Positions 3,974-63,780 of a DNA stretch of 64,000 nucleotides are shown here, piece by piece (position 1 is the first letter of the stretch; every line of letters starts with the position of its first letter). A model generated the notes under the pieces. The model made no database searches. It was not told the DNA's origin and saw only the letters and a list, made by a program, of their open reading frames with translations. The stretch is from a virus: positions 32,001-96,000 of the IMG/VR virus record IMGVR_UViG_3300043773_002546; one strand, written 5' to 3'. Position numbers and translations under genes: made by a program.

Positions 3974-4431
3974 CCGCCAAACTTGCCTACCTAATGCGGC
4001 ACGACAACGAATTCGATCCCGAGCACATGCGCGAGATCATCTATGACCTGTTTGCGGGCTCATTCGAGAGCGACTGCGGCAGCACCGACGAGATCATCGA
4101 CACGCTGTGCATGGCGATCTTCAAATACCGCTGCGCCACGGAAGACGACCTCGACGTTGACCGGGTGTTTATCTCCGACAAGAAACTGGCCGAGTGCTAC
4201 TTCTGCGACAACGTTGAAAAAATCCTTGTTGCGCACGGTTTTGACAAGGAAAACGCCGCAGAGTACGCCTCTTGGCCTGAGACCCTTCCGGTTGATGCAA
4301 CCTGGGAAAAAGAAGCCCTGCGCGAGCTGGCGCTAATTCAGGCTGGTCACGACCTAGTAGTCCGCGACCAACTCAAGCAGCTCTGGGCCGAAGAGAAAGC
4401 CAAAAAGGAGGCCGCCGAAAAGGTGGTTTGA
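3970..4431 (+). CDS. hypothetical protein
   Basis: In-chain ORF. Confidence 0.65.
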   Translation: MTAKLAYLMRHDNEFDPEHMREIIYDLFAGSFESDCGSTDEIIDTLCMAIFKYRCATEDDLDVDRVFISDKKLAECYFCDNVEKILVAHGFDKENAAEYASWPETLPVDATWEKEALRELALIQAGHDLVVRDQLKQLWAEEKAKKEAAEKVV

Positions 4432-4441
4432 TATCAATGGA
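4424..4441. repeat. dispersed palindrome copy 1
   Basis: TGGTTTGATATCAATGGA, at stop/start junction. Confidence 0.75.
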
Positions 4442-4763
4442 ACCGCGAGTGTTCACAAAGGGCGTTTTGAAAAGCGTCAACACCATGGCGCACGTCCAAG
4501 GTTATAACCGCATCGTGGACGAAAAGTTTCTCGACCGGCTGCCCGATGAGAAGTTCTACGTGCCGAATTTTGTGCTGCTGCACGAGCACAAAGCGGGCAA
4601 GCTCTGCGATCCGCACGTTCGGTGCGTGTTTGATCACGAAGGTGACTATTTTATCATCGACGTGGAGATGGGCTGCTGGGAAAAGCTGCCTACAGCCAGC
4701 GAAATGGCCCGCATGATTCGTCACGTAGAGACCCGCAGGGCTGAAGGAGACGTCTACGTATGA
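4428..4763 (+). CDS. hypothetical protein
   Basis: In-chain ORF; start (TTG 4428 or ATG 4437) lies within a palindrome copy. Confidence 0.6.
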   Translation: MISMEPRVFTKGVLKSVNTMAHVQGYNRIVDEKFLDRLPDEKFYVPNFVLLHEHKAGKLCDPHVRCVFDHEGDYFIIDVEMGCWEKLPTASEMARMIRHVETRRAEGDVYV

Positions 4764-5206
4764 GCATCGACCTGATCCGCGAAAAGCAGCGGCAGATTCT
4801 TGCGGCCAAAGAAGCGGCCAAGAAAGCGGCTGAAGAACGCTCTAAAGCGGCAAAAAAGGCCTTTGACGAAACTGGCATTCCGGCCATGTGGGCGGCCATC
4901 AAAGACATCAAAGTCCCGCATTGGCGCGGCAACGGCAGCCGAGAAAACAACCCGCTCGTCGAGATTCCGCTGTCCGAACACGTTAAGTCAATTAACGACG
5001 TGAGCATCTGGTTGCTCGACCACGACGGCGGCATCAAGATCAGCTGGTACGCCGAGAGTACGGACAAAGGCGCCCTGTGGTTGCGCGTCGGCGGCCGAGA
5101 AGGCCGCACCGGCGATAGTTACACTGCCGAGAGTCTTCGAGACCATTTTGTGGACTACATGGCCAAGCTGTTGCCGCCCCTGGAGAATACAAATGCCAAA
5201 GTTTAA
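4760..5206 (+). CDS. hypothetical protein with Lys/Ala-rich N-terminal coiled coil
   Basis: AAKEAAKKAAEERSKAAKKA; SD GAAGGAG upstream. Confidence 0.65.
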   Translation: MSIDLIREKQRQILAAKEAAKKAAEERSKAAKKAFDETGIPAMWAAIKDIKVPHWRGNGSRENNPLVEIPLSEHVKSINDVSIWLLDHDGGIKISWYAESTDKGALWLRVGGREGRTGDSYTAESLRDHFVDYMAKLLPPLENTNAKV

Positions 5207-5384
5207 TCACGCCTATACGTTGTCGTTTGAGATCACGAGCAATCACGAAGAAGGCGAGGATCTCACCGGCCTTGATTTGCGCAAAGCGCTGCTTAAGCGA
5301 CTGGACAATCTAAGCGACGATGACATGCTTGAAGCGTGCGAACCATTCGACACGTTTGAAATCGAAGACGACGAGGAGGATTAA
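5193..5384 (+). CDS. hypothetical protein
   Basis: In-chain ORF, SD GGAG; TAATG overlap with hldD. Confidence 0.6.
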   Translation: MPKFNHAYTLSFEITSNHEEGEDLTGLDLRKALLKRLDNLSDDDMLEACEPFDTFEIEDDEED

Positions 5385-6319
5385 TGATTTTGCTCACTGG
5401 GGCCGCGGGCTTTATTGGCTCAAACGTGCTCCAAGCCCTGAACGACCAGGGCCGAGACGATATCATCTGTGTAGATGACCTGACCAACGGCGCCAAGTGC
5501 CGCAACCTAGTCGGAAAAAAATTCTGGCGGTACGTTGACCGTCGCGCCGTGTTTGGCTTAGACCGCGCGCTGTTTAGTGAAATCATCCATTTAGGCGCCA
5601 ATGTCGACACAACTTGCACTGACGGTCGCGCAATGGTTCGCGACAACTACGACGTCTCGTTTGAGCTCTACAAGCATTTTGTACTCGACAATCCCGAGTG
5701 CACATTTGTTTACGCCTCAACCGCCGGAGTCTACGGCTTAAACGACAAAACGGCCGCGGCGGGTTTCCGCGAAACGCCCGAATGCGAGGATCCGCACTCG
5801 CCGTATGCGTTCAGCAAGTGGCTGTTTGACAGCTACATGCGCATTGAATTAGGCGCGCTGCATACCATGTCGATCACGGGCCTGAGATTCTTTAACGTCT
5901 ACGGCCCCGGCGAGCAGCACAAAAAACGCATGCGCTCGGCTATCGGCAACATGATCAATGATATCAATGAGGGCAGACGGCCCGTGCTTTTTGACGGTAG
6001 CGAATGGATCATGCGAGATTTCGTCTGGGTCGGCGACGCGGTCAATACCGTGCTCTGGGCCTTAGACAGCCGCCCGCGTGGGATCTTCAACGTCGGTAGT
6101 GGGGTAGCCAGATCCTTCCTAGACGCCTACAACGCTGTAGCCGACGCCGCCGCGTACGACGGTCACCCTCAGTACGTAGACTTCCCTAAAGACTTGCGTC
6201 ACTATCAGTGTTTTACGCAAGCTGATCTGACTAATCTGCGCGCCGCTGGTTTTACCCATAAGTTTGCGACGCTTGAAGAAGGCGTAAAACAGTACGTTGC
6301 GCAGTATCACAGGAGTTAA
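5384..6319 (+). CDS. hldD: ADP-L-glycero-D-manno-heptose 6-epimerase (extended SDR)
   Basis: ILLTGAAGFIGSN, DIICVDDLTNG, YASTAGVYG, SPYAFSK (YxxxK), GLRFFNVYGPGE, RDFVWVGD, FNVGSG, YQCFTQADLTNLRAAG; C-terminal pattern is HldD/RfaD-specific. Confidence 0.9.
   Translation: MILLTGAAGFIGSNVLQALNDQGRDDIICVDDLTNGAKCRNLVGKKFWRYVDRRAVFGLDRALFSEIIHLGANVDTTCTDGRAMVRDNYDVSFELYKHFVLDNPECTFVYASTAGVYGLNDKTAAAGFRETPECEDPHSPYAFSKWLFDSYMRIELGALHTMSITGLRFFNVYGPGEQHKKRMRSAIGNMINDINEGRRPVLFDGSEWIMRDFVWVGDAVNTVLWALDSRPRGIFNVGSGVARSFLDAYNAVADAAAYDGHPQYVDFPKDLRHYQCFTQADLTNLRAAGFTHKFATLEEGVKQYVAQYHRS
5954..5971. repeat. dispersed palindrome copy 2
   Basis: ATCAATGATATCAATGAG, inside hldD. Confidence 0.85.
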
Positions 6320-6369
6320 ACATGTGCGCGCGCAGGACGCCGCGCTTGTTGCGTTCGCCGCAAGCTGTT

Positions 6370-6687
6370 ATGACCTTCAAAAAAATGCCTTTGGAGGAAT
6401 GGCTCGCCCTGCCAGAGTGCCCAATGCACGAAGCAGATAGCGAACGCGCCAAGACCGAACAGAAAGTTAAAAACAATCGGCATTTACGGCGGTTGCACCC
6501 ACTGCACCTGGGGGTGTTTGTCGCCGAGACCCGCGATGGCCGCCAGTTTCGCATCAACGGTTATTCGCGGGCTTATGTCTGGGAGCACTCGCTTTCAGAC
6601 AAGACTCCCAAAACTGTCGACGTTAACATTTTGCACGTGCGTAACGTGGAAGAAGTTAACGCGCGATATCAAACGTTTTACTCGTGA
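6370..6687 (+). CDS. short ParB/Srx-like N-terminal domain protein (possibly truncated)
   Basis: HLGVFVAETRDGRQFRINGYSRAYVW resembles the ParB-N xxDGxxR motif. Confidence 0.4.
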   Translation: MTFKKMPLEEWLALPECPMHEADSERAKTEQKVKNNRHLRRLHPLHLGVFVAETRDGRQFRINGYSRAYVWEHSLSDKTPKTVDVNILHVRNVEEVNARYQTFYS

Positions 6688-6726
6688 GCGTCGTGTTGGC
6701 GCTCGTTTCCCTAGAAGGACTCTACC

Positions 6727-8049
6727 ATGACGACTCGAAACCAGACCGATAATAACAACGCCGCTACCCCTTGTGCGCGCAGAAGTCGTAATTTTCAAGG
6801 TCTGGTTGGAATTGATAAAAGAACGCGCACTCGCGTGTTCATGAACCATCTTACGCCTGCAATGGTTGAGGGCGTGCCTGCCGAGTTTGCAGAAACGCCC
6901 GCAACGCGGTTGCAGCTGTATGCCGCAATCACTGCGCGCCACGAAGAAGAGATGACCGATCCGCTGTGCGTAACAACAGCGTCGGTTGGGTTTAAGATGC
7001 CCTGGAACGTGCTGACGCGCAACGCTGCGTATCAGCGCGACGAGTTTCTCAAGAAAAACAAGGTTGCGCGGATAGTCAACAATTGGCGTCCAGCCAAGTT
7101 TCAGTCGTTGCGCGTGGCGATGATCCCAGTTTACGACGACAATGGCACAATGATCGACGTGCGTTTCGAAGTTGCCGACGGGTGGCATCGTCGCAGCGCG
7201 CTTGTCCAGCTGCAAATGACCGCAGGAAACACGTTGTTTACGATCTCCTGCGAAATCACGCCGTGTCGCAATCAGGCAGAAGCCGCGTCGATCTTTTCGG
7301 CGTCCAACAATCCTGACGAGCGCGCGCCGACGTCTTCTAAAGAGCAGTGGAAGGCTGCTTTTGTCGAAGGGCAAACAGACGTCGTTGGCGTCGTCGAGCT
7401 GTGCGACGAATACGGCCTCAACGCGCGCTGCACGAGTCGAACACGGCGTTGGCCGTACGTTGACTTCGGCTTCGCAATCCGAAACGCCATCAGCGACCCG
7501 CGTATCGGCCTGGAAGGCATGCACCGCGGGTTGCAGATCTACGGCAACGCGCAGCTTTTTGGGTTGCGCGCTCCCAAGCTCGAGCACGTGCCACATGCGC
7601 TGTCAGCGCAGATGTTCATCGGCGTATGCCGGTTTATCGCGCTGTTCGAAATGCCCGGGTACGCGCATGACGTTGTGATTCAGCGAATGTTCGCAGATCC
7701 GTCGTTCTTGCACCGTATGCGTTACCACCTCGAGACAATGTCGCTGGAAGACATCGCTGACGCGATTGGTTTTTCAGTGTCGCGTCATAACGAGCAGCAC
7801 ATTCGGCAGTGGAAAATTACTGCCTCACTTGTGCGAATCTACGAGGAGTACGTGACCAAGCCCCGATCGAGCAAGCAGAGCCTCTGGCCTGAGTGCCCCG
7901 TCGAGCTGCGTACGTTGTTCCACTCGATCCGGCATGAAGAAGACGAGCAGCGCCGTGCGCAGCGTGTCGCGCAGATGCACCGGACCCTGGTTCGGATGAA
8001 TCTGCCGCCGCGCTTCGAGGTTTGCGTTGTGCGGCCTATCACCCGCTAA
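6727..8049 (+). CDS. ParB/Srx- or DGQHR-like domain protein
   Basis: YQRDEF...IVNNWRP..FQSLRVAM...RFEVADGWHRRSAL...EAASIFSASN; SD GAAGGA. Confidence 0.6.
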   Translation: MTTRNQTDNNNAATPCARRSRNFQGLVGIDKRTRTRVFMNHLTPAMVEGVPAEFAETPATRLQLYAAITARHEEEMTDPLCVTTASVGFKMPWNVLTRNAAYQRDEFLKKNKVARIVNNWRPAKFQSLRVAMIPVYDDNGTMIDVRFEVADGWHRRSALVQLQMTAGNTLFTISCEITPCRNQAEAASIFSASNNPDERAPTSSKEQWKAAFVEGQTDVVGVVELCDEYGLNARCTSRTRRWPYVDFGFAIRNAISDPRIGLEGMHRGLQIYGNAQLFGLRAPKLEHVPHALSAQMFIGVCRFIALFEMPGYAHDVVIQRMFADPSFLHRMRYHLETMSLEDIADAIGFSVSRHNEQHIRQWKITASLVRIYEEYVTKPRSSKQSLWPECPVELRTLFHSIRHEEDEQRRAQRVAQMHRTLVRMNLPPRFEVCVVRPITR

Positions 8050-8368: not shown

Positions 8369-8443
8369 GTTGCTGGCTGTCACAGAAAGGACCCCGCGCT
8401 GCTTGGATACGGCGCTACCACGCACCGACAACCCGTATCGAAT

Positions 8444-8461
8444 CTCATTGATATCAAACCG
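8444..8461. repeat. dispersed palindrome copy 3
   Basis: CTCATTGATATCAAACCG, intergenic. Confidence 0.85.
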
Positions 8462-8468
8462 CCCGCGA

Positions 8469-9242
8469 ATGGTGCGGCGGAATCGCGATGGCATTGTGCC
8501 CGGCTGTGTCTTGTACCGCGGCCAGAGCCCATTTCTAGAAGGCGCTGCGGGCAGGTACGTCGTGGTCATGACCATGTTCGCTGATAACACCAAGACCGGC
8601 GACATGCCGCAGATCTGGATTCTCTGCGAGCACGCGCATCCGCTCGAGGCTAAAGCGCTGGGCCATCACGTCGCTGTGTGCGGCGGCTGCCCGATTACGC
8701 AGCTTTGCTACGTGAACCTGGCCAAACGCCCACGCAGCGTCCACGAGCAGTACCAGGCTGGAATGTATACCGCCGACCCTCATGCCTACGACAACATCGT
8801 GCGCGTCAATGGCGTCAGATTTGGCGCCTACGGCGACCCGGTGTTAATTCCATTGCCGCTCGTGGACCACTTGGCCACCTTGGACGTGAACCACAAACGC
8901 TGGACGGGCTATACCCACCAGTGGCAGCTGGCGCAGTACCAGGACTACCGCAAGTATTTCATGGCCAGCGTGCACACCCTCGAGGAAATGCACCAAGCTT
9001 GGAGTATGGGCTGGCGGACGTTTCGGGTGGGCAAGATGAGCGAGCAAGCTACCGCGGGCGAGATTCACTGCCCGGCGCAGACAGCACAAGACTTGCAGTG
9101 CATTGACTGCTTTGCCTGCAATGGCAACGATCGCGACCAGAGCCTGCCCATGGCGCGGAGCGTATTCGCGCAACCACATGGCCTGCAAGCTGAGTCACGT
9201 TGGAACAAGTTTATGGGAGGCTACGACAATGCCCAGGATTGA
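8469..9242 (+). CDS. Gp88-like / radical-SAM-like Cys-rich phage protein
   Basis: NTKTGDMPQIWIL, CGGCPITQLCY, VRFGAYGDP, WTGYTHQW, MASVH, HCPAQ...CIDCFACNG; start trimmed to ATG 8469. Confidence 0.55.
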   Translation: MVRRNRDGIVPGCVLYRGQSPFLEGAAGRYVVVMTMFADNTKTGDMPQIWILCEHAHPLEAKALGHHVAVCGGCPITQLCYVNLAKRPRSVHEQYQAGMYTADPHAYDNIVRVNGVRFGAYGDPVLIPLPLVDHLATLDVNHKRWTGYTHQWQLAQYQDYRKYFMASVHTLEEMHQAWSMGWRTFRVGKMSEQATAGEIHCPAQTAQDLQCIDCFACNGNDRDQSLPMARSVFAQPHGLQAESRWNKFMGGYDNAQD

Positions 9243-9688: not shown

Positions 9689-9964
9689 ATGAGCAAGGAC
9701 GCAGCTTTCCGCGAACGAATCTCGGATCTCATTGATATCAATCCGGACGCCCTATTGGCGGACGGCCTCGAGGATGCCTACATCGGGCACACGGTCAATC
9801 ACCACTACAATCACGTGGCGGTGTACGACTACGAGAAGTGCATCAATATTCTGGTCGAGCGCGACGGCATGGACTACGACGGCGCCGACGAGTTTTTGCA
9901 GTTCAACACCTTGGGCGCCTACGTCGGCCCCGACGGTCCGTTGTTTATTTGGAGCGCGTCATGA
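9689..9964 (+). CDS. conserved phage hypothetical protein
   Basis: ADGLEDAYIG...AVYDYEKC...A.EFLQFNTLGAYVG..P. Confidence 0.75.
   Translation: MSKDAAFRERISDLIDINPDALLADGLEDAYIGHTVNHHYNHVAVYDYEKCINILVERDGMDYDGADEFLQFNTLGAYVGPDGPLFIWSAS
9728..9745. repeat. dispersed palindrome copy 4
   Basis: CTCATTGATATCAATCCG. Confidence 0.85.
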
Positions 9965-14326: not shown

Positions 14327-15296
14327 ACGAAACCGCTGGACCATCTCTCGCGTCAGCGGGCGGTGGGCGCATCGGTTTGCGATTTTCTACGTGATCATGG
14401 TGGCGGCGACAAAGAAGCGCGCTTGTTTTGCCACGGATCACGCTACGGTTGTGCGAAAGATTTATCAGGTGCGGTACTTGTGGTTTAAACGGGCCAAGGA
14501 GCTCATGGCTACCGGCCTGTGGCAGCCAGGCCACGGCATCACGCGGTCGTCGGCGGACTACACCGCTCGGCGCTGCCTGTTTTGCCGCCCGAGCTGCGTG
14601 TTTTACGCCCACGGCAACTCGAACAAGCTCCGGCCGTGTAAACAGTCCCGCATCTGCCCGTTCTGTTACGCCCGCACCGTGGCCTACATCTACTGGAACG
14701 TGCGGCAGTACCTGAACACTCGGCGCAAGCAGGCCGACAACGAGATCGTGACCTGCGTGGTCCAGAAAGAGTACCTGGCCGCAAAGGGCTTTACGCCCGA
14801 GACTGGCATGGTCGCTGGCATGCACAGCCCCAACGTCCGGCGGTTGCGGGCGGTTATTGAGAAACACGTGCAACGTTATGAGCGACAGGCCAAGACTATT
14901 CAGCGCCGCACCGATGGAGCCATGTGGTCGGTGATCGTCGAGCCCAAACGTCGCGGCTGGCGCATCGAGACTCGGCAGTACTTCGTGGCCCGCGCTGGCA
15001 CCAAGTTGCCGGTTGTGCGGCTCGTAGACGCCAAGACGGTCTACACCAAATCCGCAAAAATCCAAACTTTTGTGCGGTCCGGCAAGATCTTGGGTCGTTT
15101 CGTCCGCTATCCGGCGGGCATGTTGACGGCCTACGCGGATCTGGCCGGAATTGCCATGCAGGCTACCTACGGGCTGCGCTTGCGCCGCGGCACGGGTCGA
15201 TTTCGCACCTGCGGTAGCGGGCTGGCCGCGGCCTTCAAGCAAGCGAGCAAGAAAAATGAGCGAACGAAAACCCAAGAAAACGCCCAAGCGTCTTAA
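14304..15296 (+). CDS. rolling-circle Rep/IS91-like Zn-finger protein lacking the HUH motif
   Basis: CLFC...PCKQSRICPFCYAR Zn finger, then IVTCVV, GAMWSVIVE...WRIETRQYF, YGLRLRRGTGRFR in Rep-like order. Confidence 0.45.
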   Translation: MQWVERYKRNRWTISRVSGRWAHRFAIFYVIMVAATKKRACFATDHATVVRKIYQVRYLWFKRAKELMATGLWQPGHGITRSSADYTARRCLFCRPSCVFYAHGNSNKLRPCKQSRICPFCYARTVAYIYWNVRQYLNTRRKQADNEIVTCVVQKEYLAAKGFTPETGMVAGMHSPNVRRLRAVIEKHVQRYERQAKTIQRRTDGAMWSVIVEPKRRGWRIETRQYFVARAGTKLPVVRLVDAKTVYTKSAKIQTFVRSGKILGRFVRYPAGMLTAYADLAGIAMQATYGLRLRRGTGRFRTCGSGLAAAFKQASKKNERTKTQENAQAS

Positions 15297-16386
15297 GACG
15301 TCTTGCGCGATCAGGCAGCGGCTGCAGTTTGTTTTGCAGACGGTGTACAACGGCAAAATTACGTACTTCGCCAAGGCCGCTGGGATGGGCACCCAGCTGA
15401 CACACTTTTCCGAGGTTGTGCGCGGCGCCAAAACGCCCACGCCTAGGTTTATCGCCACGGTTGTCAATCAAGCGGGCATTAACGCCGAGTTTCTGCTCTG
15501 CGGCACCGGGCCGGTCATGGGCACCTCGCGGCTCGAGTACGCAGCCGAGAACCCGGCGCCAAACCTGGAACAGCTCTGGCCCCGCTTTGACACGACCACG
15601 ATGCAGTTCACGGCGAATGACGCCCGGTCGTGCCCGGAAACACAGCCAGGCGAACCGACCGAGCTTGCGTTGGCGCGCAAGATCCACGCGACTCGCGGAG
15701 CAGGCAAGCCAGTGATCGTGTATCTGACCGAGGCGTATGCGATGGCGGGCGCCTGTTCGCCGCTCGCGGAGATGCTGCGTAAACGGTACGTTACCGCCGT
15801 GGCTATGACGGGCGGCGCCGCCTACCGCGACGTTGAACTGGCCCGCTTTGCCGGTTGCGCGCTTAATCCGGCGTTCCCGCACGCGCTCATTGATATCAAT
15901 GAGGCGACTATCCTGGCCGCCAGCAGCGGCATCGGCTACGGCGAAGCCCTGGGACGTTGGTGCTACCCGCGACCCGAGACCCGCTGTACGAGCGTGATTG
16001 CCACTGCTTACGAGATTGGCTGCCCGGTGACCGTGCACACCACAATCGGCGAGAGCCCTAACCACTGGTTTCCCGTTTCACGCGCAGCGCAACTGGGCGC
16101 GGCAATCGGCGCGGCGACCTACACGGACATGCTTGTGCTGACTGAATATTTTAAGCGCTGTAGCGGGTCGCCTGGCGGCGTGTTTATTTCCAGCGACATT
16201 GCTGGGCTGGAGCTGTACCGGTACGCCGTGGCGGCTACGCAGCAAGACGCGCTTGCGCCGCGCGTCGAGGACGTGCAAACCCACTTATTGATTGGCGGGG
16301 AGTTCCGGCTCACCTTTCCCGCGTTATTGACTTCCTGTGACGCCGTATACGACGGAAGTGCAGACGATGGCAGACGCCACAAATGA
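15256..16386 (+). CDS. XRE-like HTH fused to deoxyhypusine-synthase-like (GSU2086-type) domain
   Basis: N-term FAKAAG...FSEVVRG..TP...INAEFLLCGTGP; C-term GKPVIV, VTAVAMTGG, INEA...GIGYGEALG, SVIATAYEIGCPVTVHTTIG. Confidence 0.6.
   Translation: MSERKPKKTPKRLKTSCAIRQRLQFVLQTVYNGKITYFAKAAGMGTQLTHFSEVVRGAKTPTPRFIATVVNQAGINAEFLLCGTGPVMGTSRLEYAAENPAPNLEQLWPRFDTTTMQFTANDARSCPETQPGEPTELALARKIHATRGAGKPVIVYLTEAYAMAGACSPLAEMLRKRYVTAVAMTGGAAYRDVELARFAGCALNPAFPHALIDINEATILAASSGIGYGEALGRWCYPRPETRCTSVIATAYEIGCPVTVHTTIGESPNHWFPVSRAAQLGAAIGAATYTDMLVLTEYFKRCSGSPGGVFISSDIAGLELYRYAVAATQQDALAPRVEDVQTHLLIGGEFRLTFPALLTSCDAVYDGSADDGRRHK
15886..15903. repeat. dispersed palindrome copy 5 (perfect)
   Basis: CTCATTGATATCAATGAG. 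Confidence 0.9.
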
Positions 16387-17431
16387 ACCTGTGCTAGAAG
16401 CGTCGGATCACATCACGAACTATTTTAAGACGGCCGCGCCCCTATTGGCCGACAACCAGCGCGTGAAGATCACTGCCGCTGTTATGGAGCTGCTCCGATT
16501 TACCTCCGGCGCCGCGGTCGTAGCCCAGTGCGATCCCGCCCTGGCCCGCATAGGCTTGATCGAACTGCTCGGCGAGCTCTGCGGCATCGAGTGGGAGAAG
16601 ATTCCTTTCTCGATCACCAAGACAGCGCTGGGCAGTCCCGATCCGACAAGCGACGTGTTTGAGGCTTTGAAGACTTTCGCCAACGTGATCCAGGCCGACG
16701 CGGCGCTGGGCACTGAGGAGGTTTTTCGGTCTCTTTTTACGGTAGCGGAGCAGCCCGCAGCTCCGCCTTTGCAACCCAAGCGGGCACCCAAGGTTGCAGC
16801 ATCGGCCGACGTGGCCAAAATTTTCACGCGGTCGCCTAAGTTTAAGCCAGATTGCGGCGTGGAGCTGCTCAACTGGCAAAGCGAGTATCCCAACGGCGGC
16901 ATGGGCCCGCAGTTGTGGGGTCTACGGTTTGCCGAAAACGAAGATCAAGTTCAGGTGCTGTTGGAAACCGGCGAGCTGGTTAATCTGCCCGCGCAAATTT
17001 TTACCTTGGCTCGCACGACGGAACCGGCGGATTTTTCTGCTGTTCCGCTGGAATTGCTGGCTGCGGCGCGTTCTTTCTGGCCAGGCAAAGAGGCGGAGCT
17101 GGACACGCAATTTGGGCAGTTTACGCGGCCGTTGTATTACTGCCCATACGGAGCGCAAGCTATCGCGGCGTTGCGAGACGTTGCGAATAACCCAGCGTCT
17201 TATCCGCCACCAAACGCAGCGGCGGTGACTTTAAGCGTTGACGGCACTCCATATTTCGTTACGCTGGAAACCCGCGCATCAAAAACTGGCGTTTACGTAA
17301 CGGCCAAACTTATTGACGCAGCCGAAAATATTGTTATGCGATTGGACAAACCCCGGCAGTTTTCTGACTTGGGCGTGTATTTGTTCCCGCTTCCCGACAT
17401 GGTGATCGCCTTGGCGGTAAAGGAGCGCTGA
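16367..17431 (+). CDS. hypothetical protein
   Basis: Long in-chain ORF, overlaps both neighbours. Confidence 0.7.
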   Translation: MADATNEPVLEASDHITNYFKTAAPLLADNQRVKITAAVMELLRFTSGAAVVAQCDPALARIGLIELLGELCGIEWEKIPFSITKTALGSPDPTSDVFEALKTFANVIQADAALGTEEVFRSLFTVAEQPAAPPLQPKRAPKVAASADVAKIFTRSPKFKPDCGVELLNWQSEYPNGGMGPQLWGLRFAENEDQVQVLLETGELVNLPAQIFTLARTTEPADFSAVPLELLAAARSFWPGKEAELDTQFGQFTRPLYYCPYGAQAIAALRDVANNPASYPPPNAAAVTLSVDGTPYFVTLETRASKTGVYVTAKLIDAAENIVMRLDKPRQFSDLGVYLFPLPDMVIALAVKER

Positions 17432-18951
17432 TGTTTCGCAAGCCGCGGATTCTCTTGGTTGGCGACCTTCTTCTTGACGAGTGGGTGCACGTCAAAGCGC
17501 GCGCAGCAAATCCAGAAGGCGCGGCGGCAATTGTTAGCGGCACAGCCGACGACCGCGGCATGTCTTTGGGCGGCGTCGGAATCGCGGCTGCGCTTTTTAA
17601 ACGGCTTGGCGCCAGCGTCAAACTCATGTCGCGCCTGTCGAAGAACACGCACGGCTCGGTCGCGCACGCCCTGATGCACCGCGAACGAATCACGTGCAAG
17701 CACACAACGTTTGCCGACAACTGGACGATGCCACTTAAACGGCGTTACGTCAATGACGCAGGCGTGGTGATTTTTCGTTACGACGAGGAGCAACCGCTGG
17801 ATCAGATGCTGGAAACCGCGGGCACGCATTTTGACACAGCTCGCTATGACGAGCTTGTAAAACGTGCTGATTGCGTGCTGGTGCTTGATTACGACAAAGG
17901 TTACTTGAGCGGTTTTGGTCGTTACATGGTTGAGCGCGCCAGAGAAGCGAACACACCTATTCTGGTAGGCGCCAAACCAATCCGCCTGCGTGAGTATGCA
18001 GGCGCGGACCTGGTGAAGGTCAACGCGCACGAAGCTGCCGAGTTTCTTGACGCCGATTATGGAGACGTCACAGAGAATCTGCCCAAGGCCGCCGAATCTT
18101 TGTGCCACGCTGTATCTTCGCGTGCGGCGGTTATTACGGCCGGGTCATATGGCTCGGCTTGCGCGGTGATGACAAACAAGAACATCACCGCGTCTTTTTC
18201 GTTACCTGCGTTTCCTTGTTTTCCTGCAATTAAAAACTGTGTGGGAGCTGGCGACGCGTTTTTTGCGGGATTGACGATTGACTACGTCACGGCTCGCACA
18301 CGTTTGCGCGGTGCCGGGACGTTGCGCAACATGCGCGCGGCAATCACCGCGGCGGGCGCCGTTGCGGCCGTTTTTTTGGAGAGCGGCCCCGACGGCGTAT
18401 CGCCGCCGGTGCCTGTGCTGGCGCGCTACGATTTGCTGTGCGCTGAATCGCCAGACGCCAAGATCATGTCTCTCGACACCCTAGCCTGGCTTGCCCAGGC
18501 CTGGCGCAAGAACGAGGATGCCGTGGTTTTTACTAACGGCTGCTTTGATCTGCTACACGAGGGGCATTTGCATCTTTTGGACGAGGCCCACCGGCAAGGC
18601 ACACGCCTTATTGTCGCGGTTAACAGCGACGACAGTGTACGAACGTTGAAAGGAGAGGGACGACCAGTCCAACCATTTACGACGCGGGCCAAGCTGTTGG
18701 CGTCGTTGAGTTGCGTGGATGCGGTTGTCTCGTTGGATGAGGAGGATTTTGTTGGAAACACTGCGCTGCGCTCAATGCTTACGACCCTCCAGCCGGACGT
18801 TTTGGTCAAGGGCGACGAATACGCGGAAAGCGAAATCGTCGGCTGGGAAGAGATGGTCAAACGAGAGCCACCGGGGCGCGTGTGGCGCTGTCCCATGCTT
18901 TCCGGCCGCAGCACCACAAACGTTATACAGAAAGTCAAACACAACACATGA
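17431..18951 (+). CDS. hldE: bifunctional heptose-7-phosphate kinase / heptose-1-phosphate nucleotidyltransferase
   Basis: PfkB domain LVGDLLLD, LDYDKG, VKVNAHEA, VGAGDAF; then VFTNGCFDLLHEGH, VAVNSDDSV..LKG..RP, LVKGDEY, GRSTT. Confidence 0.9.
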   Translation: MFRKPRILLVGDLLLDEWVHVKARAANPEGAAAIVSGTADDRGMSLGGVGIAAALFKRLGASVKLMSRLSKNTHGSVAHALMHRERITCKHTTFADNWTMPLKRRYVNDAGVVIFRYDEEQPLDQMLETAGTHFDTARYDELVKRADCVLVLDYDKGYLSGFGRYMVERAREANTPILVGAKPIRLREYAGADLVKVNAHEAAEFLDADYGDVTENLPKAAESLCHAVSSRAAVITAGSYGSACAVMTNKNITASFSLPAFPCFPAIKNCVGAGDAFFAGLTIDYVTARTRLRGAGTLRNMRAAITAAGAVAAVFLESGPDGVSPPVPVLARYDLLCAESPDAKIMSLDTLAWLAQAWRKNEDAVVFTNGCFDLLHEGHLHLLDEAHRQGTRLIVAVNSDDSVRTLKGEGRPVQPFTTRAKLLASLSCVDAVVSLDEEDFVGNTALRSMLTTLQPDVLVKGDEYAESEIVGWEEMVKREPPGRVWRCPMLSGRSTTNVIQKVKHNT

Positions 18952-20564: not shown

Positions 20565-21053
20565 ATGCGTAACGTATTTTCTCTGCTGTTGGACTGGCGG
20601 CAGGAAATCGGCTACCGGCTGGAGAGTCGGCACCGCTCCAATGATTGGGCCCCGCTCCGCGACGAGCACATGCGGGAGCATTCCGCGTGCATCGCTTGCG
20701 GCCGACGCGGCGAAGAGGTGCATCACGGCGTCCCCGTAAAATACTCTCCCGCGCGCGAGCTTGATCCGACAAACCTGTACACCTACTGCTGTAACGACCA
20801 CCGCGGCCTGGCGCATCTGGGGGACACGGCAACCCACAACCCGGAGCACGCGCTGCTGGCCAAGATCAAACGCGCCTGCGTGGCGCGTTACCGCGACGAG
20901 CTGCCGTCGCAGTTGAATTTGCAAGAAGGCGTGATTTACCGAACTGTGCTGGACGCCATGCACGAGGAATTTGAGACGCGCATGTCGGATCACGTTGCCA
21001 AAGCGTTGAAAACAGTGCAGCGGTTCGTGGACAAACAGCGCCCCCAGAAATGA
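20565..21053 (+). CDS. HNH endonuclease
   Basis: CIACG..EEVHHGVP...DPTNLYTYCCNDHRGLAH. Confidence 0.75.
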   Translation: MRNVFSLLLDWRQEIGYRLESRHRSNDWAPLRDEHMREHSACIACGRRGEEVHHGVPVKYSPARELDPTNLYTYCCNDHRGLAHLGDTATHNPEHALLAKIKRACVARYRDELPSQLNLQEGVIYRTVLDAMHEEFETRMSDHVAKALKTVQRFVDKQRPQK

Positions 21054-21850
21054 GCCTCGCTCTTTTTACTATTTCTCAAGATGAAACTGACGCTTTGCAG
21101 TTGTGGCTAGCGCACCATCGCGCCCACGCGCCGACGGCCGAGCTGTACGTCTTGGATCACGAGTCCGCAGGTGACGCGGCGCTAGTTCTGCAGGACGAGC
21201 AGGCTAATGGCGTGACCGTAGTGCCCGTGCGCCACGACGTCAGTTTTGACTACGACTGGTTGACACGCACCGTCGAGGATTTTGCCGGGTTTCTCTTGCG
21301 AAGCTACGCGGCAGTCGGTTTTGCCGAGGTCGACGAATTGCTTTTGCCCACCGCGGCGAGCACTTTGGAGGCGCTGCTGTTGACTACGACGGAGCCGTTT
21401 GTTCGCGCCGAAGGCCGCTGCCTGGTGCACCATCATCCCGAGGAGCCGCCGTTGCGTTTGGATCAACCGCTGCTGGCGCAGCGCCGTCATTGGTATCGCT
21501 CGGAGCGTTACAGCAAGATCTGCCTGTTTCGCGAACGGGTGTATTGGAAAAACGGTTTTCATGCGGCCTATAACGTGCCCGCCACGCAACACGCCACTCC
21601 GGCGCTGATTAACCTGCACTTGCACCAGGCTGACTACGCCCAAGCCTTGCGGCGGCATCAGCGCAACGCTGGTCGACGCTGGGACCCGCGTTTTCGCCAG
21701 TCGGACCTTGGTGTGCACCAGCGGTTGGACAACCCCGACGAGCTTGCGCGCTACCTGCTAGCCAACCTTGACCGACCCCGCGAGTACGCCGAGCTGGAAG
21801 AGATTCCCGCTGCTTACCAGGAAAGTTACCGTGTATGTCTGCCCCGTTGA
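21050..21850 (+). CDS. GT-A glycosyltransferase (GT2-like)
   Basis: LQLWLAHHR...LYVLDHES...EVDELL...YSKICL...WKNGFH. Confidence 0.65.
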   Translation: MSLALFTISQDETDALQLWLAHHRAHAPTAELYVLDHESAGDAALVLQDEQANGVTVVPVRHDVSFDYDWLTRTVEDFAGFLLRSYAAVGFAEVDELLLPTAASTLEALLLTTTEPFVRAEGRCLVHHHPEEPPLRLDQPLLAQRRHWYRSERYSKICLFRERVYWKNGFHAAYNVPATQHATPALINLHLHQADYAQALRRHQRNAGRRWDPRFRQSDLGVHQRLDNPDELARYLLANLDRPREYAELEEIPAAYQESYRVCLPR

Positions 21851-32083: not shown

Positions 32084-32091
32084 AAGAAACT

Positions 32092-45821: not shown

Positions 45822-46487
45822 GTGAAACGTGTTGTTTATTGCACGGCTGTATTCAACCGCCGTGAAAACTTTGAAATTCTGCTGGACAGCTACTTGGCGT
45901 TGCGCAAACTTCCCCGGAACACGCAGGACGTGCTGTGCGTCTACGACTGGGACGGCGAGCTCAATGATATCAATGAGATTGACGGCCTGGCTTATCAAGC
46001 AGGCCACCAGACTGGACCAATTAACCGCGCCGAAGCGCGCAACCGCGCGCTGGCAGTTGCCAAGGCGGCCCCCGACGAGCTTGTGTTTTTCGTCGATTGC
46101 GATATGGTGCTACCCACGGACTTTTCCGACCGAGTGCGTCATTTCGTGAAACCAGGTCACGCTTACTTTCCTGTCTGCTATTCGCTCTACCGTGGCTCCC
46201 CCGCGGTCGTTAAGGGCCACGGTCCGGCGCACACACCTGGCAAATCAGGCGCCAACGGCTGGTGGCGCGAAGCAGGCCGTGGCAACTGCGGTTTCGTACT
46301 TCAAGACTTTTTGGCCATTGGCGGCTGGGACGGCGCCCGCTGGGGCACAAACTACGGCCGCGAAGACGACGACGTCTTCTGGCGGGCCAAGGCTAAGCTC
46401 ACCATCCATCGCGAGTGGACGCAGAACTTTTTTCATCAGTGGCATCCGCGCGTGGCGGAACCACAGAATCCATCTATTACGAGGTAA
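45822..46487 (+). CDS. GT-A glycosyltransferase (GT2/GT7-C-like)
   Basis: NRAEARN, FFVDCDM, IGGWD..WG..YGREDDD, FFHQWH. Confidence 0.8.
   Translation: MKRVVYCTAVFNRRENFEILLDSYLALRKLPRNTQDVLCVYDWDGELNDINEIDGLAYQAGHQTGPINRAEARNRALAVAKAAPDELVFFVDCDMVLPTDFSDRVRHFVKPGHAYFPVCYSLYRGSPAVVKGHGPAHTPGKSGANGWWREAGRGNCGFVLQDFLAIGGWDGARWGTNYGREDDDVFWRAKAKLTIHREWTQNFFHQWHPRVAEPQNPSITR
45960..45977. repeat. dispersed palindrome copy 10
   Basis: CTCAATGATATCAATGAG. Confidence 0.9.
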
Positions 46488-54917: not shown

Positions 54918-55658
54918 ATGACACCACTCGAAGAACAACTAGCCCATACTACCGAGTTTGCCAGGCGTCATTACGGCGACCGGCCGTCGATTTACGGGCG
55001 CTCGCTGTTTGCTCACTGCCAGGCGGTATCCAGGTTTGCCGAACACATCGCCCAGAAGCTTTACCAAGACGTTCGCGCCGAGTACACAAGCGCCGAGACC
55101 AACGAAACTCTTGCAGCCATCGTGCAAGGCGCTATGCTGCACGACGTCATCAATGTCAGTTGTGCATTCGAGGACGTAGCCGGGCACACCACAGTGCAGG
55201 TCGCCGCAATGGTGGCCGACTTGAGTCGCGATTACCGGCTTGTGGAAACCAAGCGCGATATGGAATTCCGCGGCAGGCTAAGCCAAAGCCCTGTAAGCAC
55301 GCAAATCGTCGCAGTCGCCGATATTGTTTGCTCGACCAAAGAGATTATTGCCATGCTCAACGCCGAAGGGCTTCCCGCGGTGCCACGCGCGAAAAAACTT
55401 CTGGCGCAGTTGGACGGCGATCTGCTTTCGGTGCACGCCGCAAACCTTTATTATGTCTTGCGCATGTATGTACATGCGGGTAGAAACATGATGCGAGAAG
55501 CAAGTCAGCTTATTAAAGACGTTCGCATCAAAGCCCGCACCGCGCAAAGCAACGCCGTGCTGCGCGCCAAGATCGCGGCCAAGCTCAACGCCAAGCCAGA
55601 GAAGGAAGTACCGGAGAAGAAACATGGCAAAAAGCGAACTACTCGACGCGATTCGTGA
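54918..55658 (+). CDS. HD-domain protein, Mesh1/SpoT-hydrolase-like, degenerate
   Basis: H...HC..V...AMLHDVI...VAAMVADLS...IVAVADI; lacks ED after HD and the K/N of KxAD..N. Confidence 0.6.
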   Translation: MTPLEEQLAHTTEFARRHYGDRPSIYGRSLFAHCQAVSRFAEHIAQKLYQDVRAEYTSAETNETLAAIVQGAMLHDVINVSCAFEDVAGHTTVQVAAMVADLSRDYRLVETKRDMEFRGRLSQSPVSTQIVAVADIVCSTKEIIAMLNAEGLPAVPRAKKLLAQLDGDLLSVHAANLYYVLRMYVHAGRNMMREASQLIKDVRIKARTAQSNAVLRAKIAAKLNAKPEKEVPEKKHGKKRTTRRDS

Positions 55659-55947
55659 CGCATTTGAAATTGCGCAACCCAGCGTAGATGCGCTTGCGAT
55701 TAGCGCGTTTTGTGACTTCGCCGCCGACTGGCTGGCCAGGGCGGGCATCCTGGGCGTCGGGCACACGGCCAACGGCCTGGCCTTGCGGATGCGCGACGGT
55801 AGCGAAAAGCTTTTGGTGAACTTGGAACTCGAGCCCACCGTTGCGGATACTCCGGCGGTCGGCATCGGCGTCAACGGCGTCAGCGCCAGGCAGGGGATCG
55901 GCGGCGGGGAAGCACCCAGCATCCGTATCACCGGCCGTTCTCAATGA
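55624..55947 (+). CDS. hypothetical protein
   Basis: In-chain; its stop codon lies inside a palindrome copy. Confidence 0.55.
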   Translation: MAKSELLDAIRDAFEIAQPSVDALAISAFCDFAADWLARAGILGVGHTANGLALRMRDGSEKLLVNLELEPTVADTPAVGIGVNGVSARQGIGGGEAPSIRITGRSQ

Positions 55948-55957
55948 TATCAATGAG
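55940..55957. repeat. dispersed palindrome copy 11
   Basis: CTCAATGATATCAATGAG, over a stop codon upstream of tmk. Confidence 0.9.
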
Positions 55958-59153: not shown

Positions 59154-59589
59154 CAAAAACTGTGGTTGCGCAAAGCGGGCACAGCCACGCGAAGAGCTGA
59201 TCGACATGTCGGCCATTACGGCCCTTGGCGATATTGGCGCTGAGGCATTGCGCGGTCTTTTGGCGGTAGCCCGTAGCGGACTAACTGGACTCGCTAAGCT
59301 CGACCTTCCCGCAGGAGAACTGCGCACGCTGGCCCGCACGATTGCCGTTCTTTACGAAGAGCGCAACAGACTGCAAAATCTTTTGGCATCCATGGAGACT
59401 GTTGACGGCATCAACGTTGCAAGCGGCCCGACTGACGTAAAGATCGGCTTCGGCCCGGACAAGAAATACACGCTGATCATTCCCGTCACAGGGGCAATCG
59501 CCAAGCAGGAGCTAGCCACAGGTTTGCGCAACGTGGCCGACGTGCTCGCTCCGGATCCGCGTCAAATGCCGCTGCCTTTGGAATACTGA
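59140..59589 (+). CDS. hypothetical protein
   Basis: In-chain ORF. Confidence 0.6.
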   Translation: MTCNNKNCGCAKRAQPREELIDMSAITALGDIGAEALRGLLAVARSGLTGLAKLDLPAGELRTLARTIAVLYEERNRLQNLLASMETVDGINVASGPTDVKIGFGPDKKYTLIIPVTGAIAKQELATGLRNVADVLAPDPRQMPLPLEY

Positions 59590-60644
59590 TGAGCGATCCA
59601 GCGCATGATCTGGCTCTGCTGCACCACGCGTTCTACGTCGGCGAACTAGAAGTAGGCCGCCGGGCGGCAGAGCGGTTGTTGCGCCAGGACCTGCCTGAAG
59701 ACAGCGCAACGCGGGCCCGCCACAACCGCACCTTCTACACACCGACGCTGGCCGAGCTGGGCCCGGTTGAATTCAGGCGCATTGATATCAAACCGGCTTA
59801 TCACGGTTGGAGCCTGTTCAACCCCACGCTCCTGAACAACAACGGCAAGCTCGTGGGACTGGTCCGCTCGAGCAACTACACCATGAAGGGCATGCAGTAC
59901 ATCATGCCGCCCGCGGACAAGGGCGTCATCCGCACCATCAGCATTTTCGTCGAGTACGCCCCAGACTTCAGCGTGGCCGCGTCTCATGCCTTGGCCGACC
60001 CCGACTACCCGCGGACAACCTTCGCCGTGGATGGCCTGGAGGATTGTCGCTTGTACGCTCGCGGCGACGCTCTTTATGTCTCGGCTACCGTGCGGAACTT
60101 TGCCCCCTATGACGGCAACTGCCGCATCGGCACGGCACGGCTGGACACGGCGGGGAAACGCTACTGCGAACTGGAGGTTCCCGCCGCGCCTGGCTCGCAG
60201 CACGAGAAGAACTGGATGCCGGTGATAGGCCAGGATTGCTGGCTTTATGCCTGCAATCAAAACGACAAAACTTTCTTGGCCCGCCGTAAAGGCGTTAACT
60301 GGGAACTTGTGAGCACGGGCCCGGCACCAATCGTGGCGCGCTCGTTTCGCGGTGGCGCGCAATTAGTGCCATTCGGCGGCGGTTATCTCTGCGCCATTCA
60401 CGAGGTTACGCACGGCGACAACAGACGGACTTATGAGCACCGGTTTGTGTGGTTTGACGATCAACTGCGCGTCAAGAAACTCAGCGCGCCTTTTTACTTT
60501 CGCAACAAACGGCAAATTGAGTTTGCGGCTGGCTTGGCCGTTATTGGCGATCAAGTCGTACTGTCGTTCGGCTATCAGGACAAAGAAGCGTGGCTGGCAA
60601 TTTTAAGCGCCCAGGCCGTTTCGGAACGATTGTCGCCGGTGTAA
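59589..60644 (+). CDS. five-bladed beta-propeller glycosidase/phosphorylase-like protein (GH130-like) with TPR-like N-terminus
   Basis: FNPTL, GLEDCRL, EKNWMP, FRGGAQ, YEHRFV, IEFAAGL. Confidence 0.65.
   Translation: MSDPAHDLALLHHAFYVGELEVGRRAAERLLRQDLPEDSATRARHNRTFYTPTLAELGPVEFRRIDIKPAYHGWSLFNPTLLNNNGKLVGLVRSSNYTMKGMQYIMPPADKGVIRTISIFVEYAPDFSVAASHALADPDYPRTTFAVDGLEDCRLYARGDALYVSATVRNFAPYDGNCRIGTARLDTAGKRYCELEVPAAPGSQHEKNWMPVIGQDCWLYACNQNDKTFLARRKGVNWELVSTGPAPIVARSFRGGAQLVPFGGGYLCAIHEVTHGDNRRTYEHRFVWFDDQLRVKKLSAPFYFRNKRQIEFAAGLAVIGDQVVLSFGYQDKEAWLAILSAQAVSERLSPV
59778..59795. repeat. dispersed palindrome copy 12
   Basis: CGCATTGATATCAAACCG. Confidence 0.75.
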
Positions 60645-60646
60645 GC

Positions 60647-61459: not shown

Positions 61460-61463
61460 AACC

Positions 61464-63770
61464 ATGTCGCAGTTACAAGCATTTACAAACGTAGCCGGAC
61501 CCATAACGGTAGGGTTCAAGGGCGAGTTGGCGCGGCTGGCCGATCCGAACATCACGGACAAGGATACGGCCCACAGTTACTGCCCGGTATACGAGCAGGA
61601 ACTTGGGCGTTTGCGCCTAACCACAGGGCACGTGCTTGAAATTGGAGTGCAGCGCGGCGGTTCGGCCTGCATGTGGCTGCAGTATTTCGATTATGCAACT
61701 GTGCATGGCGTTGATATTTCGCCCAAACCGCAGTTGATGTTGCTGCACGATCCGCGCTACCAGCATCACCAAAAAGACGCCTACTCTGCAGATTTCGTTG
61801 CGTCTTTGCCGGACCTAATGGTAGCAATTGACGACGGGCCGCACACTGTCGAGTCGCAGCTGTCTTTTATTCGTCTGTACGGGCCAAAAATCGAACCGGC
61901 TGGTTTGCTAATCATCGAGGACATAGCGGCAGACGACGCTTTGCAACGCATCACAGCGCAGTTTGACGATCGCTGGGTCGTGCGCGTTTACGACCGTCGC
62001 GCGCTCACCAATCGGTTTGACGACGTAATACTGGTGGCGCAAAAAACGCAAGGTATGGTTGTGATGGTGGATGATCGCGGTTACGCGGATTTCATACAGG
62101 GCGCGGCCGCGCGGAACAAAGCTTTTGCCGACATGCACGGTCACGCGTTTCGGTTTTACCGTCCTGAAACCATAGTCTCTCCAGCGGGCCAGAAGCGGCA
62201 CCCAAGTTGGACAAAAATTATTGCCGTCGCGCACGCGCTACAGTCGGTTGATTGGGTTTTGTACATTGATTCTGACGCGGCCGTTGTCGCGCCGCGGCAA
62301 CCCGTCCCGATGCGCGAAAAATCTTGGTTCATTGCTGATCGGCCCTGGAACCGACAGTCTCCTAATGCGGGAATCTTTTTACTGCACAAGCGCGACTTAG
62401 CCTGGTTGCCGCAATGGTGGGAGTTTGACCTGCCCGAGCACGATAACAAACATTCCTGGGAGCAGGCGGCGTTGCAACGGTTGTGGGACACGTTACCGTT
62501 GGCGCTTTACAACGCGCCCCACGTGGAGATTGCTGACGAGCAGTGGGTGCGCCATTGCTATAACGAACAATCTAATCGCCGCAAGGATTTCTGCGTTGGC
62601 GCGCCCGTTGTGGCGCTGCCGGAGCCAATACCGTTTTCATGCACGCAACATGATGTTACGATTGGCGGCACTACATCTCCTTTTTACGCTCTCTGGAAAC
62701 AGCCACGCGCTATGAAAATCGCTGTTTACTCGCTGGCCAAGAACGAAGAGAAGCACGCTGCGGCCTGGGCGGAGTCTTGCAAAGAAGCTGACTACCGCGT
62801 GGTCACGGACACCGGTTCGGCCGACAAGACACCGGATATCCTGCGCGCAGCTGGCGTTAGTGTGTACACGGGCAACGTTGTGCCGTGGCGCTGGGACGAG
62901 GCCCATAACCTCTCCATGCACCATATACCCAGCGACGCCGACGTTTGCGTGCGCTTGGACTTGGACGAGCGTTTCAAACCTGGCTGGCGCGCGGCTATCG
63001 AGCAAGCCTGGAAGCCCGGCACGACCAAGCTACGGTACATGTACACCTGGAGCATGACGCCCGACGGTAAACCATTAAAGCGATTTCCCTCTGACCGCGT
63101 GCACAGTCGCTCGGGGTATCGCTGGACCGGAGCGACGCACGAAGGACTTGTGCGCTGGAATGGCGCGGAAGTATTCGCCTGGTCTGACGAGCTAGAAATT
63201 TTGCATCACCGCGATTTCGGCAAGAAACATAGCACAGACATGGAGCTCTTGCAGATCGCCGTGCGTGAAACGCCGCACGACGCTCGCATGTACTGGTATT
63301 TAGCGCGGCAAATGGACTATGAAAATCACACCGACACGGTCGCCACGTTTTTGAAGTACTTAGACATGCCCGGGGGTAGCTCAATCGAGCGAGCCTACGC
63401 TTGCCGCGTTTTGTCCCGTAGGCTGCCCGATAAAGCAGAATACTGGCTGCAGCGCGCCATTCAAGAAGATGCCGCTGGGCCTGATGGTTACTACGCCATG
63501 GCCAAATTGGCGCATCAAAATAAAAATCACTTAACAGCCTTCTACTACGGCAAGCAGGCCGCCGATAGAGCGGGCGCAAGCATGATGCACACCAGCGACA
63601 CAGAAGCGTTCAGCCACCTTCCGGCGGATATCACGAGCGTGAACGCGTTTCTCTTGGGGCTCAACAAAGAAGCCTTGCGCTACACCAAAATTGCGCTTGA
63701 GCGCAGCCCAAACGATGAGCGCCTCAAGCGCAATCTTGAGCAACTCTCGGAACAGCTCAAAGCTCATTGA
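61464..63770 (+). CDS. tri-domain fusion: class I SAM methyltransferase + GT34-like + GT2-TPR
   Basis: VLEIGVQRGGS, IDDGPH, IIEDI; SWTKII, YIDSDA, NAGIFL, WEQAAL; AKNEE, DTGSADKT, RLDLDE, TPR-like helices. Confidence 0.75.
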   Translation: MSQLQAFTNVAGPITVGFKGELARLADPNITDKDTAHSYCPVYEQELGRLRLTTGHVLEIGVQRGGSACMWLQYFDYATVHGVDISPKPQLMLLHDPRYQHHQKDAYSADFVASLPDLMVAIDDGPHTVESQLSFIRLYGPKIEPAGLLIIEDIAADDALQRITAQFDDRWVVRVYDRRALTNRFDDVILVAQKTQGMVVMVDDRGYADFIQGAAARNKAFADMHGHAFRFYRPETIVSPAGQKRHPSWTKIIAVAHALQSVDWVLYIDSDAAVVAPRQPVPMREKSWFIADRPWNRQSPNAGIFLLHKRDLAWLPQWWEFDLPEHDNKHSWEQAALQRLWDTLPLALYNAPHVEIADEQWVRHCYNEQSNRRKDFCVGAPVVALPEPIPFSCTQHDVTIGGTTSPFYALWKQPRAMKIAVYSLAKNEEKHAAAWAESCKEADYRVVTDTGSADKTPDILRAAGVSVYTGNVVPWRWDEAHNLSMHHIPSDADVCVRLDLDERFKPGWRAAIEQAWKPGTTKLRYMYTWSMTPDGKPLKRFPSDRVHSRSGYRWTGATHEGLVRWNGAEVFAWSDELEILHHRDFGKKHSTDMELLQIAVRETPHDARMYWYLARQMDYENHTDTVATFLKYLDMPGGSSIERAYACRVLSRRLPDKAEYWLQRAIQEDAAGPDGYYAMAKLAHQNKNHLTAFYYGKQAADRAGASMMHTSDTEAFSHLPADITSVNAFLLGLNKEALRYTKIALERSPNDERLKRNLEQLSEQLKAH

Positions 63771-63780
63771 TATCAATGAG
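63763..63780. repeat. dispersed palindrome copy 13 (perfect)
   Basis: CTCATTGATATCAATGAG, over a stop codon. Confidence 0.9.

Follow-up and report, generated by a model that had tools for sequence, protein, structure and literature searches.

The uncultured virus G000 (IMG/VR record IMGVR_UViG_3300043773_002546), of which bases 32001-96000 make up the 64,000-nucleotide stretch analysed here and referred to below as the window, carries about 40 copies of a short palindrome that are spread as a lattice over its whole chromosome. The comparisons described below strongly support that this lattice is real and constitutes a DNA-level, genome-wide recognition array of the protein-binding type. The copies are predicted to be docking sites for a dimeric, phage-encoded protein that reaches the whole chromosome, an explanation that we hold with slightly better than even confidence. 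The G000 record comprises 197,309 bp with a GC content of 59%, for which our own gene calls gave 244 genes, 232 of them on the plus strand, leaving 91% of the sequence coding and 9% non-coding. It belongs to a clade of roughly 200-kb IMG/VR contigs with polymerase identities of 63-74%, and direct terminal repeats occur in several of them. Comparisons were made with G001, the sister phage and closest complete relative (median protein identity to G000 of 59%), with the further clade genomes G002, G004 and G006, and with two partial close relatives, L119 from sequencing run SRR27446121 and L118 from SRR31540289, the latter a Logan contig that was retrieved via a homologue of the window gene at 15256 and is 74.6% identical to G000 at the DNA level over 16 kb. 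Searches against cultured phages revealed no relative above 25% identity, and a metagenome scan with the G000 polymerase revealed nothing closer than 68%. Positions are those of the window unless given as genome positions or as positions in L075, L076 and L077, which are pieces of G000 (L075:11987 = genome 101987; L076:16362 = genome 126362).

What is conserved is a dyad of 14 bp, C-A-W-W-GATATC-W-W-T-G, often lengthened to 18 bp and without a central spacer. A first-pass annotation of the window had listed 13 copies of WTGATATCAW; all of these were found, against 0.06 on average and 1 at most in dinucleotide-preserving shuffles of the window, and each window occurrence of TGATATCA belongs to one of them. 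Two of the 18-mers, at 15886 and 63763, are perfect palindromes as had been described. Missing from that list was a hybrid copy at 934-951, which combines one A-type with one T-type half-site (that is, with base A or T at motif position +-4). The extended form WWGATATCWW occurs 14 times in the window and 40 times in the G000 genome (0.8 expected), with 31 strict copies genome-wide. About 60% of the copies in G000 lie in frame within genes, where they use only two frames because the third would be a stop; in-gene copies in G001 use all three. As to the 13 window copies, eight are read in x-D-I-x phase, two in L-I-S phase and three as TGA stops (4429, 55945 and 63768), so that the earlier statement that copies fall in different frames stood, whereas its count of two stops had left out the one at 4429. 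Genome-wide, the TGA stop of the preceding gene is part of the palindrome in four cases, in one of which the ATG of the next gene is as well. A literature search with the motif strings returned cloning primers only.

The proposal that the constraint is on DNA and not on protein was upheld when codons were shuffled synonymously within genes. In G000 the shuffles retained 1.1 copies in coding sequence (CDS; maximum 3) against 18 observed, and in G001 1.4 against 29, the latter distributed over all three frames. Chance or a codon artefact is ruled out by the dinucleotide and synonymous-codon shuffles, and a protein motif by the use of two frames plus stops in G000 and of all three frames in G001. 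Alignment to the sister proteins indicated that sites had arisen by residue-changing substitutions (F-D-V to F-D-I; A-Q-L to N-D-I) with zero indels. It is very improbable that the palindrome is an RNA hairpin acting in processing, termination or stability, or a small mobile repeat. The 18-mer could fold into a 7-bp stem and many copies directly follow stop codons, but folding is no more favourable at the sites than in random 22-mers (mean -2.6 versus -3.0 kcal/mol), the G001 version has a mere 4-5-bp AT stem, and it is the sequence that is conserved, not the pairing. Mobile insertion of the kind seen with repetitive extragenic palindromes (REP) or miniature inverted-repeat transposable elements (MITE) is ruled out by the in-frame copies within genes, the lack of indels against orthologues and this random-level folding energy. 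The constraint is thus on DNA, and not on protein or RNA.

Selection on the letters of the motif was evident in the closest relative. The five sites of the region that G000 has in common with L118 lie at the same positions in both, with 70 of 70 motif columns identical at an overall identity of 75%, compared with 73-86% in the 60-nt flanks (P ~1e-9); L118 carries two more sites that G000 is without. In G001, there are 42 copies of the AGATATCT core and 52 of the extended form, with the consensus A-W-A-GATATC-T-W-T. Its preference differs from that of G000 at position +-4 only (T to A), and in each genome the half-sites pick T or A independently (at 85-87% for G001), the TT, TA and AA combinations numbering 31, 8 and 2 in G000 and 1, 12 and 42 in G001. 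Most site positions are not common to the two phages, and the few positional orthologues are respelled symmetrically; they include the stop-codon site after the gene at 55624-55947 (TGA versus TAG), the site in the gene at 40643-41761 and a site in a non-coding block (L076:15600-15720, genome 125600-125720). This block is 83% identical between G000 and G001, far above the local norm, contains a small GC hairpin besides the respelled palindrome, and had no match in Rfam. The T-type spelling is retained in L119, and more distant members of the clade have fewer and looser copies (19, 10 and 4). Based on these comparisons at three depths (L118, G001 and the distant members), the array is old, under turnover, expanded in the subclade of G000 and co-evolving with its putative reader.

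The sites are also evenly spaced. The coefficient of variation of the gaps was 0.65 for the 40 sites of G000 (about 0.96 for random placement, P 0.003; minimum gap 700 nt) and 0.59 for the 52 sites of G001 (about 0.96, P below 5e-5; minimum gap 273 nt), there were no close pairs of sites, and every 10-kb bin held a copy. Even spacing without close pairs therefore suggests that the function of each site extends over a segment of DNA. Such spacing would also suit the action radius of an enzyme acting on DNA, for which the sites would be placed so that all of the genome is within reach. The enzyme might be a nuclease that nicks or cuts at the sites, or a factor for recombination or for the initiation of replication, or the sites might be Chi-like signals giving protection against an exonuclease. 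G000 encodes an SbcC-like ATPase, helicases, and SbcCD-like and other nucleases, and the combination of a GATATC core with an outer base that can change is reminiscent of shifts in specificity among type II enzymes. We nevertheless consider an enzyme site improbable: Chi-type signals are short and asymmetric, unlike the 14-bp palindrome found here; a dyad of 12-14 bp is long for a restriction-type enzyme; no methylase of the Dam/EcoRV class (D12) was found in the five clade genomes; the GATATC site is enriched rather than avoided, with flanks conserved to 14 bp; and in general the sites do not coincide with synteny breaks. The packaging, recombination and operator functions that had been suggested for the palindrome fit even, unclustered sites less well.

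Promoter-like signals were identified near some of the sites. An element of the form GCTAAA-N(16-17)-GGCATAT, followed by a conserved AGTRAGC-like stretch, recurs five times in G000 (window 63801-63829; genome 5544, 80918, 102992 and 164001) and at least nine times in G001. The element is similar to promoters of the sigma-28 type, and the sigma-like protein that the phage encodes (genome 182099-182914) may recognise it. A palindrome lies at most 60 nt upstream of three of the five elements in G000, with a gap of 3-4 nt in two of them and in one case in G001, and TTGACA-type hexamers adjoin two other sites. No partner element at a fixed distance was detected around most copies, and transcription control is therefore probably a side use of the sites and not the whole story. 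The short sequence TTAAC was observed within 30 nt of 12 of the 40 G000 sites (2.9 expected; for example, genome 17397, 125675 and 163975) and the 7-mer TTAACGC six times near G000 sites (0.5 expected); TTAAC may be a partner site, and it was not enriched near the sites of G001.

Transcription control would be the main function if the palindromes were the operators of a global repressor or activator, with the in-gene copies acting as roadblocks to read-through on a genome transcribed almost entirely in one direction, in the manner of stoperators or of the C1 operators of phage P1. Several sites lie 3-4 nt from promoter-like elements or overlap a TTGACA-type -35 hexamer, 16 of the 40 extended sites (40%) are not fully within CDS although just 9% of the genome is non-coding, a cI-like helix-turn-helix (HTH) protein is encoded, and the fast respelling between sister phages resembles the divergence of immunity specificities. 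We regard this regulon as unlikely, since stoperators and C1 operators are asymmetric and biased in orientation where the site described here is palindromic, the sites are even and unclustered, as operators need not be, and most copies are without a partner element at fixed distance. Furthermore, the phage looks virulent. Neither an integrase nor ParB was found, and it has its own sigma-like factor, four tRNAs (Lys, Glu, Met and Asn; L075:8001-8073, L075:11568-11640, L076:4904-4977 and L076:16281-16354) and a transfer-messenger RNA (tmRNA; L075:11987-12338, genome 101987-102338; Rfam score 113 bits). The tyrosine integrase family PF00589 was absent from six-frame searches of five clade genomes (G000, G001, G002, G004 and G006), although absence of a Pfam match is not proof. 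Just 3' of the tmRNA, a promoter-like element is followed by approximately 500 nt of apparently non-coding DNA.

The search for a reader of the sites pointed to the gene at 15256-16386, which is found throughout the clade and carries a conserved palindrome within itself (15886). The first-pass annotation had described its product as a fusion of an HTH and a deoxyhypusine-synthase-like (DHS) domain, and this architecture was confirmed. The best match of the family profile among solved structures was the DNA-binding domain of the phage 434 repressor (E 0.001), a distant homologue scores HTH_3, and the modelled C-terminal domain resembles deoxyhypusine synthase and the C-terminal (Rossmann) domain of ArgZ. 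The recognition helix differs between G000 and G001, as respelling would require; the helix evidence is weak, however, because L119, although T-type in spelling, has a different helix as well. We therefore regard the HTH-DHS protein as the best candidate reader but, being weakly linked to the motif, as a doubtful one. The orthologue in G001 occupies L032:13821-15026 (minus strand), and more than 60 homologues of this unusual fusion occur in metagenomes, none of them annotated.

Other candidates were rejected. Six-frame searches of the five clade genomes with ParB_N (PF02195) and HTH_ParB (PF17762) gave no match save one at E 0.02 in G004, while PF02195 was found in 11 and PF17762 in all 14 of 14 control genomes. 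The gene at 6727, which had been called ParB-like, had no Pfam match and no orthologue in G001, a weak DUF6551 signal being confined to two relatives (one other phage and one G004 ortholog). The array is present without a detectable ParB-type protein, and its reader may therefore belong to a non-ParB family. Phylogenetic profiling of genes exclusive to G000 and G001 brought up enzymes of sugar-nucleotide metabolism and unknowns, with no DNA-binding protein among them, the gene between two sites at genome 117930-118586 looks like one for a virion protein and not a regulator, and a 194-amino-acid protein with HTH and HNH domains (L076:16362-16946, genome 126362-126946), encoded in G000 only, is probably a homing endonuclease. 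For the gene that follows the 63763 site, a single-sequence fold was too poor to use (predicted local distance difference test score, pLDDT, 45). A six-frame search with HTH_3 was negative or sub-threshold, and ten conserved proteins had no match in PHROGs. Two further labels fared differently, with DUF1016_N at 41811 confirmed by Pfam and an IS110-like protein at 26503 having no family match.

It is highly improbable that the reader is instead a host factor, that is, a regulator, nucleoid protein or defence component of the host put to use or titrated by the phage. Host nucleoid proteins prefer AT-rich sequences of the kind that this site presents in a genome of 59% GC, but concerted respelling in sister phages fits a co-evolving phage gene better. 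Moreover, among 185,579 species genomes of bacteria and archaea the 18-mer gave only scattered single matches, and no genome rich in GC contained many copies; in IMG/VR, too, it gave single matches only.

According to the explanation that we favour, a symmetric dimeric phage protein would dock with high affinity at the palindrome, each site serving a domain of about 5 kb. The strict dyad is as expected for such a symmetric dimer. The protein would load or nucleate at the site and slide, spread or bridge from there, and the few copies directly upstream of promoter-like elements probably also tune transcription. Site spelling would evolve together with the reader, leaving sister phages with mutually distinct lattices. 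The clade does encode a cI-type HTH protein, and the 434 repressor, its best profile match, binds 14-bp dyads. The first-pass annotation had proposed a site used genome-wide and bound by a dimeric protein; the strict dyad and the genome-wide use were confirmed, and we infer the binding itself, together with a phage origin of the reader and a genome-wide coverage beyond promoter control. Several observations weigh against this explanation. The 16 sites outside CDS often lie no more than 21 nt after a stop codon, which could mean a role at gene ends and not coverage, and the evenness of spacing in G000 itself is just moderately significant. Covariation of helix and site is not clean, given the change of the recognition helix between G000 and L119 under the same spelling, and distant members of the clade retain the 15256 gene yet have few sites (4 in G006 against 1.9 expected). 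In addition, Pfam and PHROGs searches with about 60 proteins identified no classical regulator besides the weak HTH of the 15256 product.

Among known systems, the closest appear to be KorB with its OB operators, Noc with its binding sites (NBS) and the repeats of Cluster O mycobacteriophages. KorB has 12 OB operators on the IncP plasmid RK2 (McLean et al., 2025, PMC11790492). The G000 array shares with KorB-OB, Noc-NBS and ParB-parS a short palindrome that recurs roughly every 5 kb along an entire replicon, within and between genes, and in KorB-type systems a dimer loads at such sites and acts at a distance. As with OB, some sites are promoter-proximal and others far away, and a 14-bp dyad in 40 copies is comparable to the 13-16-bp palindromes that ParB-family proteins recognise in several copies. 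The array differs in belonging to a large, apparently lytic phage instead of a plasmid or chromosome, in having three to four times more sites than KorB-OB, evenly spaced, in that loading and sliding are presumed, and in the lack of a ParB_N or HTH_ParB protein in the five clade genomes. The nearest phage precedent is the 17-bp Cluster O repeat TGTTCGG-N3-CCGAACA, to which neither a function nor a reader has been assigned (Cresawn et al., 2015, PMC4351075). Both sets comprise more than 30 invariant, dyad-symmetric copies that are dispersed genome-wide over intergenic regions, gene starts and gene interiors; sequence and lineage are unrelated, and the G000 palindrome has no central spacer. Even spacing, purifying selection and respelling in a sister are documented for the G000 lattice in comparison with that of Cluster O.

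Two repressor systems offer more distant parallels. The stoperators of L5-like phages and the C1 operators of P1 are asymmetric sites oriented with transcription in temperate phages. They are likewise found in tens of copies scattered genome-wide, many of them in genes, with a spelling that co-evolves with the repressor between related phages. Here, by contrast, the site is a palindrome whose half-sites are chosen independently and symmetrically, and no lysogeny genes were found (PF00589 and ParB_N, five genomes). The cI and Cro proteins of phage 434 also recognise a 14-bp dyad operator, and the 434 repressor is the best match of the N-terminal domain of the 15256 product. However, 434 has six clustered operators at two promoters and no lattice, and the candidate described here is fused to a deoxyhypusine-synthase-like domain.

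The copies of the palindrome in the window, the candidate reader and the promoter-like element are listed in Table 1.

Table 1. Palindrome copies and associated features in the window, with their context in G000 and relatives
Feature	Position	Strand	Context
Hybrid copy (one A-type and one T-type half-site)	934-951		Within CDS 898-1182, read as K-D-I-K
Gene-junction copy	4424-4441		TGA is the stop of CDS 3970-4431; ATG is the start of CDS 4437-4763
Copy in NAD-dependent epimerase gene (5384-6319)	5954-5971		N-D-I-N; 14/14 kept in L118
Copy in CDS 8403-9242	8444-8461		L-I-S; 14/14 kept in L118
Copy in CDS 9689-9964	9728-9745		I-D-I-N; 14/14 kept in L118; R-E-A-H at this place in G001
Perfect 18-bp palindrome in HTH-DHS gene (15256-16386)	15886-15903		14/14 kept in L118
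Copy in SbcC/Rad50-like gene (24339-26519)	25833-25850		Kept in L118 and L119
Copy in CDS 26503-27435	27013-27030		Kept in L119
Copy toward the 3' end of CDS 32080-33153	33105-33122		L-I-S
Copy in CDS 40643-41761	41180-41197		Sole in-gene site with an exact positional orthologue in G001, A-type there
Copy without a clear coding frame around it	45960-45977		GC at third codon positions 0.44-0.66 in all frames (0.73 in long genes)
Copy giving the TGA stop of CDS 55624-55947	55940-55957		22 nt ahead of the next gene; this junction in G001 has an A-type copy, with TAG as stop
Copy in CDS 59589-60644	59778-59795		I-D-I-K
Perfect 18-bp palindrome giving the TGA stop of the gene at 61464/61527-63770	63763-63780		21 nt upstream of a promoter-like element
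Candidate reader (weak), 376 amino acids, N-terminal HTH of the 434-cI/XRE type and C-terminal deoxyhypusine-synthase/ArgZ-C-like domain	15256-16386	+	In all clade genomes examined
Promoter-like GCTAAA-N(16-17)-GGCATAT	63801-63829	+	Downstream of the 63763 copy; elements of this class are found after palindromes at two further genome positions

Other features of the clade were noted. DNA polymerase A of G000 (33519-36656, 1045 amino acids) has an N-terminal domain of the uracil-DNA-glycosylase superfamily and a 3'-5' exonuclease domain. G000 and G001 have in common several sugar-nucleotide genes (window 5384-6319, 17431-18951 and 21050-22629; L076:12675-13079; L077:1302-1931) that are missing from more distant clade members. 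They encode glycosyltransferases, a cupin, and an epimerase and an HldE-like kinase-cytidylyltransferase that are present also in L118 and L119; these genes could serve to glycosylate virion proteins or DNA. The distant relative G006 contains a gene with collagen-like G-x-y repeats (L071 ~6040-7230; G006 186042-187221) in which a 10-mer unrelated to the palindrome is repeated 21 times. The 18-mer itself was also found in several Anaerococcus assemblies (L123, L154, L155, L161, L181 and others), which are unrelated to the GC-rich G000; its location there, no more than about 100 nt from the ends of contigs, points to the terminus of a repeated mobile element.

Plasmids and bacterial chromosomes offer known examples of dispersed binding-site arrays (KorB, Noc, SlmA and MatP); in phages, such arrays have barely been described. 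The lattice provides unusually clean evolutionary evidence for selection on a whole array, in that its sites were acquired at a cost in amino acids, are letter-perfect in a close relative, evenly placed, and respelled in concert in the sister phage. A more far-reaching version, to which we give little credence at present, is that a lytic phage marks its whole chromosome without ParB, by an even lattice that is read by a cI-type HTH protein fused to a deoxyhypusine-synthase-like, NAD- or polyamine-binding domain and hence responsive to a small molecule, the spelling being re-coded in each lineage so that each phage recognises only its own DNA. If this were true, the lattice would allow discrimination of self from non-self during co-infection or during the destruction of host DNA.

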